Virus record (IMG/VR): IMGVR_UViG_2684623059_000004
DNA length: 37,308 nucleotides
Origin: a virus
Lineage: Duplodnaviria; Heunggongvirae; Uroviricota; Caudoviricetes
Direction: 5' to 3' (one strand)
This document shows positions 33,341 through 34,012 of this stretch, piece after piece. Position 1 is the stretch's first letter; every line of letters begins with the position of its first letter. A program made the translations under genes and the position numbers. The notes beneath the pieces are model-generated. The model was not told the origin of the DNA. It did no database searches and saw nothing but the letters and a program-made list of their open reading frames with translations.

Positions 33341-33682
33341 TTAATTCGGCATGGTTAGCCGTCTGGGAAATAAGCTCACCACTGCACGAAAATGATTCAT
33401 TGCTTTAATCAACTCCCGCTTTTCGTCAGTGGTCAGCTCATTAATGCTGATGCTATGACGTTCAGCTGGAATTTTTGCCATAAAGAATATGGCAGCCAGT
33501 GCCCGTTTATTTTGTTCGCTATTAATATCCCGTGAATCACGCATATCTTTAATAAACCGCTCAAGCTCTGACTCAATATTCAGGCCAAAAACTTTCGCCC
33601 TTAATTCCGAAATGTGATTAAGTCCATTCAGGCGTTCACCGGGGCTTAATGGAACAGTCGCCGCAGTGCCTTCAATAGCCAT
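33341..33682 (-). CDS. hypothetical protein
   Basis: 113-aa ORF; AT-rich divergent intergenic region upstream. Confidence 0.45.
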   Translation of the reverse strand: MAIEGTAATVPLSPGERLNGLNHISELRAKVFGLNIESELERFIKDMRDSRDINSEQNKRALAAIFFMAKIPAERHSISINELTTDEKRELIKAMNHFRAVVSLFPRRLTMPN

Positions 33683-33763
33683 TTATGCATCCCACAACAC
33701 ATCTACTAAAAAATTTTTGATATGATCCATTACCAACATATTGATAGCTAGAAGGAATCATCA

Positions 33764-34012
33764 ATGTTGAACCCGGTTGAAAGAGAGCGTATAGAGCAAC
33801 TTGAAAACGAGATCTCCAGTCTTCGCGATGAGGTTGCTGTTCAACGAATTCTTGTTTCAGGTCTGATCCACTCCTTATTTCGAACTGACTCAGCAAATCA
33901 ATCAGCATTTTTTGAGCTCCTCCGCGAAGAATTAAACAAACTTCCTTTAGGTTCGGTTAAACAACAAGAATTCACTCATCTGATACAGACACTGATAGAT
34001 CGTTACCGATAA
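33764..34012 (+). CDS. hypothetical coiled-coil protein on the opposite strand
   Basis: 82-aa ORF with AAGGA Shine-Dalgarno 8 nt upstream. Confidence 0.45.
   Translation: MLNPVERERIEQLENEISSLRDEVAVQRILVSGLIHSLFRTDSANQSAFFELLREELNKLPLGSVKQQEFTHLIQTLIDRYR

Follow-up and report, generated by a model that had tools for sequence, protein, structure and literature searches.

A plus-strand accessory gene and its convergent partner orf74 in the pR early operon of a 186-type prophage

A 186-type (Peduoviridae) E. coli prophage has its immunity and early region at the right end of the window (the whole 37,308-nt stretch of DNA that was analysed, IMG/VR record IMGVR_UViG_2684623059_000004; Table 1). 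In a 186 lysogen, CI represses pR, and the early transcript has to run from apl to A. The pR operon on the annotated 186 map consists of apl, cII, fil, dhr, the terminator tR1, DUF2732 and the zinc-finger gene, and continues to A. This gene order, together with a tR1 core that is identical in both phages, indicates that the stretch from fil to tR1 in the window corresponds to the slot of dhr in 186. The tR1 core forms the downstream limit of this variable slot, which in 186 is occupied, according to the annotated map, by host-directed accessory genes (fil and dhr). In the window, the slot carries an ORF on the plus strand, opposite to the surrounding early genes (apl/cox, cII, fil, DUF5347, DUF2732, zinc finger, Dam and A). 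The first-pass annotation had pointed out this ORF together with the neighbouring 33341..33682; the coordinates of both proved exact, as did the observation that the plus-strand ORF converges on a small ORF downstream of cII. The latter is orf74, and the 3′ ends of the two genes overlap by 10 nt.

Table 1. Features of the early and immunity region of the prophage, in descending order of position in the window
Feature	Position	Strand	Details
int	36100..37308	+	
Small YdcA-family ORF	35876..36067	+	63 aa; NCBIfam NF007463, 5.3e-34
cI	35285..35860	+	
apl/cox	34944..35165	-	
cII	34402..34917	-	
fil (cell-division inhibitor), domain-coding part	34236..34394	-	Pfam Phage_186_Fil, 1e-22
Intrinsic-terminator-like hairpin with U-rich tail	34032..34075	+	Hairpin 34032..34065; terminator scan
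orf74	34003..34227	-	74 aa; phrog_4312
Plus-strand gene	33764..34012	+	82 aa; phrog_26925; RefSeq WP_000934004.1, 'hypothetical protein'
Shine-Dalgarno-like AAGGA	33752..33756	+	7 nt before the ATG of the plus-strand gene; G-rich block kept in homologues
Extended -10 element TGaTATGAT	33718..33726	+	Hexamer TATGAT at 33721..33726; 38 nt 5′ of the ATG
Inserted segment with promoter and plus-strand gene	33683..34021		339 bp, 38 % GC; 41 bp in its place in phages 813R9 and 4LV2017
DUF5347 gene	33341..33682	-	113 aa; Pfam PF17282, 9.4e-33
186 tR1 terminator core TGGCGTAAACCCGCCGGGCAT	33303..33323	-	Identical 21-mer in the 186 tR1 region
DUF2732	33040..33279	-	
DksA/TraR zinc-finger gene	32813..33040	-	
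Dam	31959..32876	-	
Replication gene A	29548..31962	-	

The Fil ORF (34098..34427, minus strand) remains open for about 40 codons beyond the Pfam domain, and in this extended form it overlaps orf74 by 130 nt in a different frame. Fil has been annotated as a 98-aa 'FIL' in phage vB_EcoM-813R9 (hereafter 813R9) and as a truncated or partial pseudogene in RefSeq (PGAP). Since Fil is only 65–66 aa long in Salmonella phage RE-2010 and in the relative L043, the extension looks incidental; the overlap that it creates accounts for the lack of a RefSeq annotation for orf74.

The plus-strand ORF starts with ATG, encodes 82 aa and ends with a stop codon. Among the six reading frames, its frame (+1, 82–86 aa) is the sole one that is free of stops across all 13 diverged lineages compared. 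Homologues with 65–71 % amino acid identity are all exactly 82 aa long, and dN/dS at this level of identity, calculated for pairs with unsaturated synonymous sites, amounts to 0.12–0.17. Judged from its sequence, the plus-strand ORF is a genuine protein-coding gene under purifying selection. It encodes an acidic (pI 5.3), soluble protein that lacks transmembrane segments and whose AF2 model (pLDDT 78) consists of a long N-terminal helix (residues 4–40) followed by helices 43–58 and 63–81.

Relatives of the plus protein are few. Among 1.84 billion representative proteins, a profile search recovered 14 relatives (79–86 aa) and one 33-aa fragment, and a word-indexed search of 5.8 billion proteins returned 23 clusters, every one labelled 'hypothetical'; the named clusters come from Lelliottia, Klebsiella, Pseudescherichia, Pantoea and Pectobacterium, and the window's own cluster from E. 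coli. No match to the protein was obtained by tblastn in 50,697 deposited phage records, and no relatives were obtained in a scan of genome contigs that started from the plus-gene alignment, while of the pattern scans of viral contigs one gave no match and another only a match of 29 % identity. Neither the plus protein nor Orf74 matched an entry in Pfam, PADLOC, NCBIfam, PDB or BFVD, and PADLOC v2.0 yielded zero matches at E ≤ 1 for these two proteins and for the DUF5347 protein. No likeness in sequence or fold to known defence proteins, toxins, antitoxins or regulators was detected for either the plus protein or Orf74, and thus the toxin–antitoxin, regulator or defence identity suggested by the first-pass annotation found no family match. 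The plus protein lies outside every described protein family, and its genetic arrangement is unusual. A literature search on WP_000934004 gave no result.

Comparison of the window with phage 813R9 and Klebsiella phage 4LV2017 by BLASTN aligned positions 32800..33682 and 34022..35179, on either side of the inserted segment. The insertion amounts to approximately 320–339 bp relative to 813R9, with its boundaries taken as the ends of the BLAST alignments. Phage 813R9 has an intact orf74, whose stop is separated by 22 nt from the start of DUF5347; the segment therefore sits between two genes that are adjacent in both 813R9 and 4LV2017. Its GC content (38 %) is below the 50 % of the whole window, and that of the 81-bp spacer 33683..33763 is 31 %. 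Salmonella phage RE-2010 lacks 33685..34224, and with it both orf74 and the plus-strand gene. On a larger scale, about 1241 of the 5426 complete E. coli genomes surveyed carry the region from fil to DUF5347, and 65 carry the plus-strand gene; among 40 evenly spaced hits of the region, both genes were present in 3, orf74 only in 16 and neither in 20. These presence/absence counts identify DUF5347 as part of the backbone of the clade, orf74 as a common accessory gene and the plus-strand gene as a rare one. The view that the opposite-strand insert is cargo, already proposed in the first-pass annotation, is borne out by the replacement of the segment by 41 bp in the two phages and by its distribution among relatives, and an accessory rather than a backbone status of the plus-strand gene appears well supported.

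Following the definition of Juhala and Hendrix, a moron is an extra transcription unit that separates two genes which are direct neighbours in related phages. Similarly to morons, the plus-strand gene is inserted between adjacent genes, is lower in GC than the phage and occurs in a minority of relatives; it also has a promoter motif and a terminator-like hairpin, which would be its own promoter and terminator. On three sequence-level criteria, it fits the moron concept. Classic morons, however, are single units that reside in late or arm regions and are usually co-oriented with their surroundings or separated from them by intergenic flanks. The plus-strand gene lies antisense in an early lytic operon and overlaps at its 3′ end with a neighbour that has diverged along with it, and what is inherited is a unit of two genes on opposite strands.

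Expression signals were examined on both sides of the gene. No good -35 element accompanies the extended -10 in the window, and a strict -35/-10 scan of the spacer 33683..33763 gave no match. Nevertheless, the -10 block is kept as TGnTAT(G/C)(A/C)T in close homologues, where it is the best-conserved part of an otherwise variable spacer; its forms in the Lelliottia and Klebsiella relatives are TGATATCAT, TGGTATGAT and TGGTATGCT. At the equivalent position, the L037 clade has a 10/12 match to a sigma-70 promoter (TTAACA-17-TATGAT) and the L042/L046/L047/L048 clade has TGCATAAT. Altogether, 12 of the 13 lineages have a -10-like element 35–42 nt 5′ of the ATG; no clear one was seen in L044.

The terminator-like hairpin begins 20 nt past the stop of the plus-strand gene, within the 3′ coding part of orf74. 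It has a stem of 12–13 bp and the tail UACUUUUUCA, and its predicted folding energy is -19.6 kcal/mol (z = -7.2) on the plus strand and -14.5 kcal/mol, without a U-tail, on the minus strand, where the G-U wobbles of the plus strand become A-C mismatches. The stem is retained through compensatory or wobble changes in L005, L006, L048 and 813R9, while the T-tract that follows it is restricted to the window and L048 clades, the U-tail being missing in most homologues. The presence of the hairpin even in 813R9, which lacks the plus-strand gene, suggests that it has a role beyond ending the plus transcript or that it is a relic. The paired changes in the stem also alter residues of Orf74 (EVM...TSP in the window, ETI...VSP in 813R9). 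Taken as predictions, both the promoter and the terminator of the plus-strand gene are plausible, and the plus transcript of the window would probably end about 60 nt into orf74. An Rfam search over 33000..35400 returned nothing relevant, and the only word shared between the plus promoter and the cI/apl switch region is an 8-mer in the area of the ribosome-binding site.

A sequence overlapping the -10 of the plus-strand gene (ATTTTTGATATGATCCATTACCAACAT, 33713..33739, plus strand) differs at 2 positions from the CII operator, which in the window phage is ATGTTTG-N13-CAAACAT at 34885..34911. The corresponding position in relatives has at least 5 mismatches in 9 of the 12 other lineages and 3–4 in L042, L046 and L047, while 10 of the 11 lineages whose locus reaches the start of cII (those of the short contigs L042 and L047 do not) have a pE-type site of their own with 0–2 mismatches. 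Its absence from the homologous loci indicates that the operator likeness at 33713..33739 is probably due to chance, and CII control of the plus promoter, of the type known for 186 pE, was rejected on the grounds that the site is not conserved.

The convergent neighbour, orf74, is itself constrained (dN/dS 0.05–0.24). The AF2 model of its product (pLDDT 85.5) shows five strands and a C-terminal helix arranged as a small SH3-like barrel, and no transmembrane segment was found in it. Homology of Orf74 to Dhr was considered and rejected, as BLASTP gave no alignment at E ≤ 100 and only the map position after fil is common to the two. An orf74 homologue was adjacent to and convergent with the plus-strand gene in all 35 plus-bearing loci examined first, and the same adjacency was found in the more distant lineages L042–L049, giving a total of 13 of 13 lineages. 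In L042–L049, orf74 was often missed by the gene caller, but the ORF is present with its conserved motif, ...(C/F)(Y/F)PS(I/L)...GSYFFTL.DG..FRGE.VKE... The 3′ ends of the two genes overlap by 4–15 nt in most lineages and are otherwise separated by a gap of up to about 8 nt.

The other flank of the plus-strand gene is variable: it is DUF5347 in the window, a 212-aa ORF in L037, a 126-aa ORF in L043, a 108-aa ORF in L044 and fil in L046–L049. In the last group, the two genes lie between cII and fil, i.e. before fil, whereas in the window they lie after it. The pairwise divergences of the plus protein and Orf74 are correlated (r = 0.875 over 78 pairs), with identities to the window copies of 28–71 % for the plus protein and 25–67 % for Orf74. 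Among the 13 lineages, the plus-strand gene was not seen without orf74. The reverse state does occur, in one tight clade with approximately 80 % identity to the window copy of orf74; it includes 813R9 and 4LV2017 and an estimated 40 % of related E. coli prophages, and it looks like the outcome of a single loss of the plus-strand gene. The constant adjacency, the co-divergence and the one-sided absence point to the convergent orf74/plus pair as the unit of inheritance, and the abundance of the orf74-only clade (16/40) argues that the plus-strand gene is dispensable and that orf74 is of some value alone.

The reading that we favour, with a probability of roughly 0.45, combines a moron-like gene in lysogenic orientation with the early-lytic orf74 in one convergent cassette, with reciprocal expression and antagonism of the two products. 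The plus-strand gene would be an autonomous moron-type accessory gene, equipped with its own predicted sigma-70 extended -10 promoter and, in the window lineage, with its own predicted terminator, that has been inserted in lysogenic orientation (on the strand of cI and int) into the fil..tR1 slot of the early lytic operon. Together with orf74, presumably transcribed from the CI-repressed lytic pR, it would make up an old cassette of two convergent genes that are inherited jointly. In a lysogen, pR would be off and the plus-strand gene alone would be transcribable within this stretch; given that CI represses pR and that the early transcript runs from apl to A, it would be the sole expressible member of the pair. 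Upon induction or infection, pR transcription would proceed head-on through the plus-strand gene to DUF5347 and the replication genes, making Orf74 and occluding the weak plus promoter, which would result in reciprocal expression.

The two small soluble proteins may act antagonistically on one process, with the plus protein as a prophage-expressed effector, whose role might be superinfection exclusion or abortive defence, and Orf74 as an early-lytic antidote or self-immunity factor. Such antagonism would explain why the plus-strand gene is never found without orf74 while orf74 persists alone. On the other hand, constant adjacency may reflect a constraint in cis, imposed by the 3′ overlap and the terminator inside orf74, or shared descent, and the 'never alone' pattern is derived from 13 lineages. 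The poor -35 in the window, the missing U-tail in most homologues and the lack of similarity of either protein to known defence proteins, toxins, antitoxins or regulators also weigh against the cassette reading.

A stand-alone moron is a possible, though rather doubtful, alternative. According to this explanation, the plus-strand gene is an independent lysogenic-conversion or defence gene whose product targets the host or other phages, and its adjacency to orf74 is historical or structural. The insertion between genes adjacent in relatives, the promoter motif, the terminator-like hairpin and the low GC content are all in line with such a gene, as is the fact that orf74 works without it in a successful clade; furthermore, the overlapping 3′ ends leave no spacer for recombination, and the plus terminator is located inside orf74. 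However, the adjacency persists down to 28 % identity, and it has outlasted one or more changes of position with respect to fil as well as repeated replacement of the gene on the other side. The clean removal of the plus-strand gene in 813R9 indicates that the orf74/plus junction can recombine, yet the plus-strand gene has never been seen without orf74.

A more specific version of the cassette reading would make the pair a new minimal prophage immunity module, in which the coiled-coil plus protein blocks incoming phages and the beta-barrel Orf74 neutralises it; we regard this as rather unlikely. The 82-aa plus protein made in the lysogen would then stop the lytic development of 186-like or other phages, Orf74 made from pR would let the prophage escape its own block, and the head-on transcription would operate as a mutual-exclusion switch.

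It is less likely still that the locus serves primarily as a cis-acting or antisense regulator, for which the convergent transcription and an RNA antisense to the 3′ end of orf74, or to more of it in lineages that have no terminator, would be what matters. Such an arrangement could reduce the amount of pR transcription that reaches DUF5347 and the replication genes, or could exclude related phages through RNA–RNA interaction. It would be in keeping with the head-on geometry within the operon, with the 4–15-nt 3′ overlap in most lineages and with the greater stability of the hairpin on the plus strand. However, selection acts on the amino acid sequence, the length is fixed and only the coding frame is open; this strong protein-level constraint weakens an RNA-only role, and the probable end of the window transcript early in orf74 does so as well.

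A type II toxin–antitoxin addiction module, with Orf74 as the toxin and the plus protein as the antitoxin, is very improbable. Two small genes are constantly found together, and orf74 occupies the slot of the host-inhibiting 186 genes fil and dhr, as such a module would have it, but the genes lie on opposite strands in all loci and share no operon, neither protein resembles any toxin or antitoxin known so far in family or fold, and the would-be toxin gene is kept without the plus-strand gene in 813R9, in 4LV2017 and in about 40 % of the prophages. A type I toxin–antitoxin or antisense RNA pair was also considered and discarded: the orf74 and plus transcripts, if made, would overlap at their 3′ ends, but the antisense partner codes for a conserved protein, and there are no transmembrane segments.

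Least credible is the divergent toxin–antitoxin or regulator pair of the plus-strand gene and DUF5347 under a bidirectional promoter. The two do diverge over an AT-rich 81-bp spacer, but about 1241 genomes have DUF5347 as against 65 with the plus-strand gene, DUF5347 is present without the plus-strand gene in RE-2010 and 813R9 and absent beside it in L037, L043 and L044, no minus-strand promoter motif was found in the spacer, and no toxin–antitoxin family was matched. Of the first-pass description of a divergent pair around a shared promoter, the AT-rich spacer therefore stands, while the pairing itself falls with the independent occurrence of DUF5347; the shared promoter is unsupported because no sigma-70-like site for the minus-strand gene was found and DUF5347 is internal to the pR operon. 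DUF5347 is labelled 'replication protein GpB' in 813R9, but nothing in support of this name was seen, its only Pfam match being DUF5347; a literature search on this domain gave nothing relevant. Two points of annotation are thereby corrected, namely the absence of orf74 from RefSeq and the occasional mislabelling of DUF5347 as gpB.

Several known systems offer parallels to the cassette of moron-like gene and orf74. Prophage defence with cognate self-immunity is represented by SieB/Esc of P22 and by BstA of BTP1 with its aba element; of these immunity partners, Esc is produced from within sieB and aba is a DNA element. By analogy with these systems, the presumed lysogen factor is never found without its adjacent lytic-phase partner, while the partner can stand alone. 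In contrast to them, no relation in sequence or fold exists, and the partner would be a separate 74-aa protein read from pR. Like fil and dhr of 186, which are small, non-essential and host-directed genes, orf74 and the plus-strand gene occupy the slot between fil and the tR1 core; unlike in 186, whose slot holds no opposite-strand gene, one of the two runs against the operon, and orf74 has no BLASTP similarity to Dhr.

Transcriptional interference between pR and pL of 186 has reportedly been described by Callen, Shearwin and Egan in 2004. STnc6030 of BTP1 is an antisense RNA made by a prophage (PMC7067206). Both serve as precedents for the regulator reading, and the plus-strand gene resembles them in having a predicted promoter head-on to the strong lytic pR and a transcript antisense to a lytic gene. 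The promoters, however, are approximately 1.5 kb apart rather than 62 bp as in 186 pR/pL, and the antisense transcript codes for a conserved protein. Defence hotspots have also been described in P2-like prophages (PMC9122126; PMC13586616); the GpA–GpQ interval is reported as the main site of their defence cargo, and the integrase–primase interval as holding 8 % of the systems (PMC13586616). The cassette resembles this cargo in being accessory and in lying within the integrase–primase interval, and it differs from the described hotspots in that it resides inside the early operon itself and matches no PADLOC model.

If the two genes do form a defence/self-immunity or effector/antidote pair, the system would be very small and novel in fold, and it would make the early operon a new cargo site in the repertoire of P2/186 prophages. 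The orf74-only phages would in that case be carriers of an anti-defence gene; they are present in hundreds of genomes of E. coli and Klebsiella. Function aside, the locus provides a natural test case for promoter collision within a phage operon.

The prophage contains further cargo. A 629-aa fusion of a retron-type reverse transcriptase and Toprim (25981..27870, minus strand; PADLOC RT-Toprim_I-C, 1.5e-217; Pfam RVT_1) lies in the GpA–GpQ hotspot, in the interval from the portal gene to gene A, next to a 243-aa ORF without matches (28172..28903, minus strand). The combination of RT-Toprim with Dam beside A recalls retronphage phiR67 and retron Ec67. A 311-aa FRG-domain protein (16245..17180, plus strand; Pfam FRG; PADLOC candidate PDC-S15, 8.5e-32) is encoded among minus-strand late and tail genes and is probably tail-region hotspot cargo. 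The YdcA-family protein encoded between cI and int has a hydrophobic N-terminus; in relatives, the cI–int position is taken by a KAP NTPase (L006) or by an AAA_15/AAA_21 ATPase with DUF4435, a PARIS-like arrangement (L044). Finally, in E. coli NZ_AP022650.1 (898246..899651) the fil..DUF5347 region was matched over 1406 bp in three pieces, and the slot there carries two Fil-family annotations and a hypothetical protein, which points to another state of insertion or duplication.
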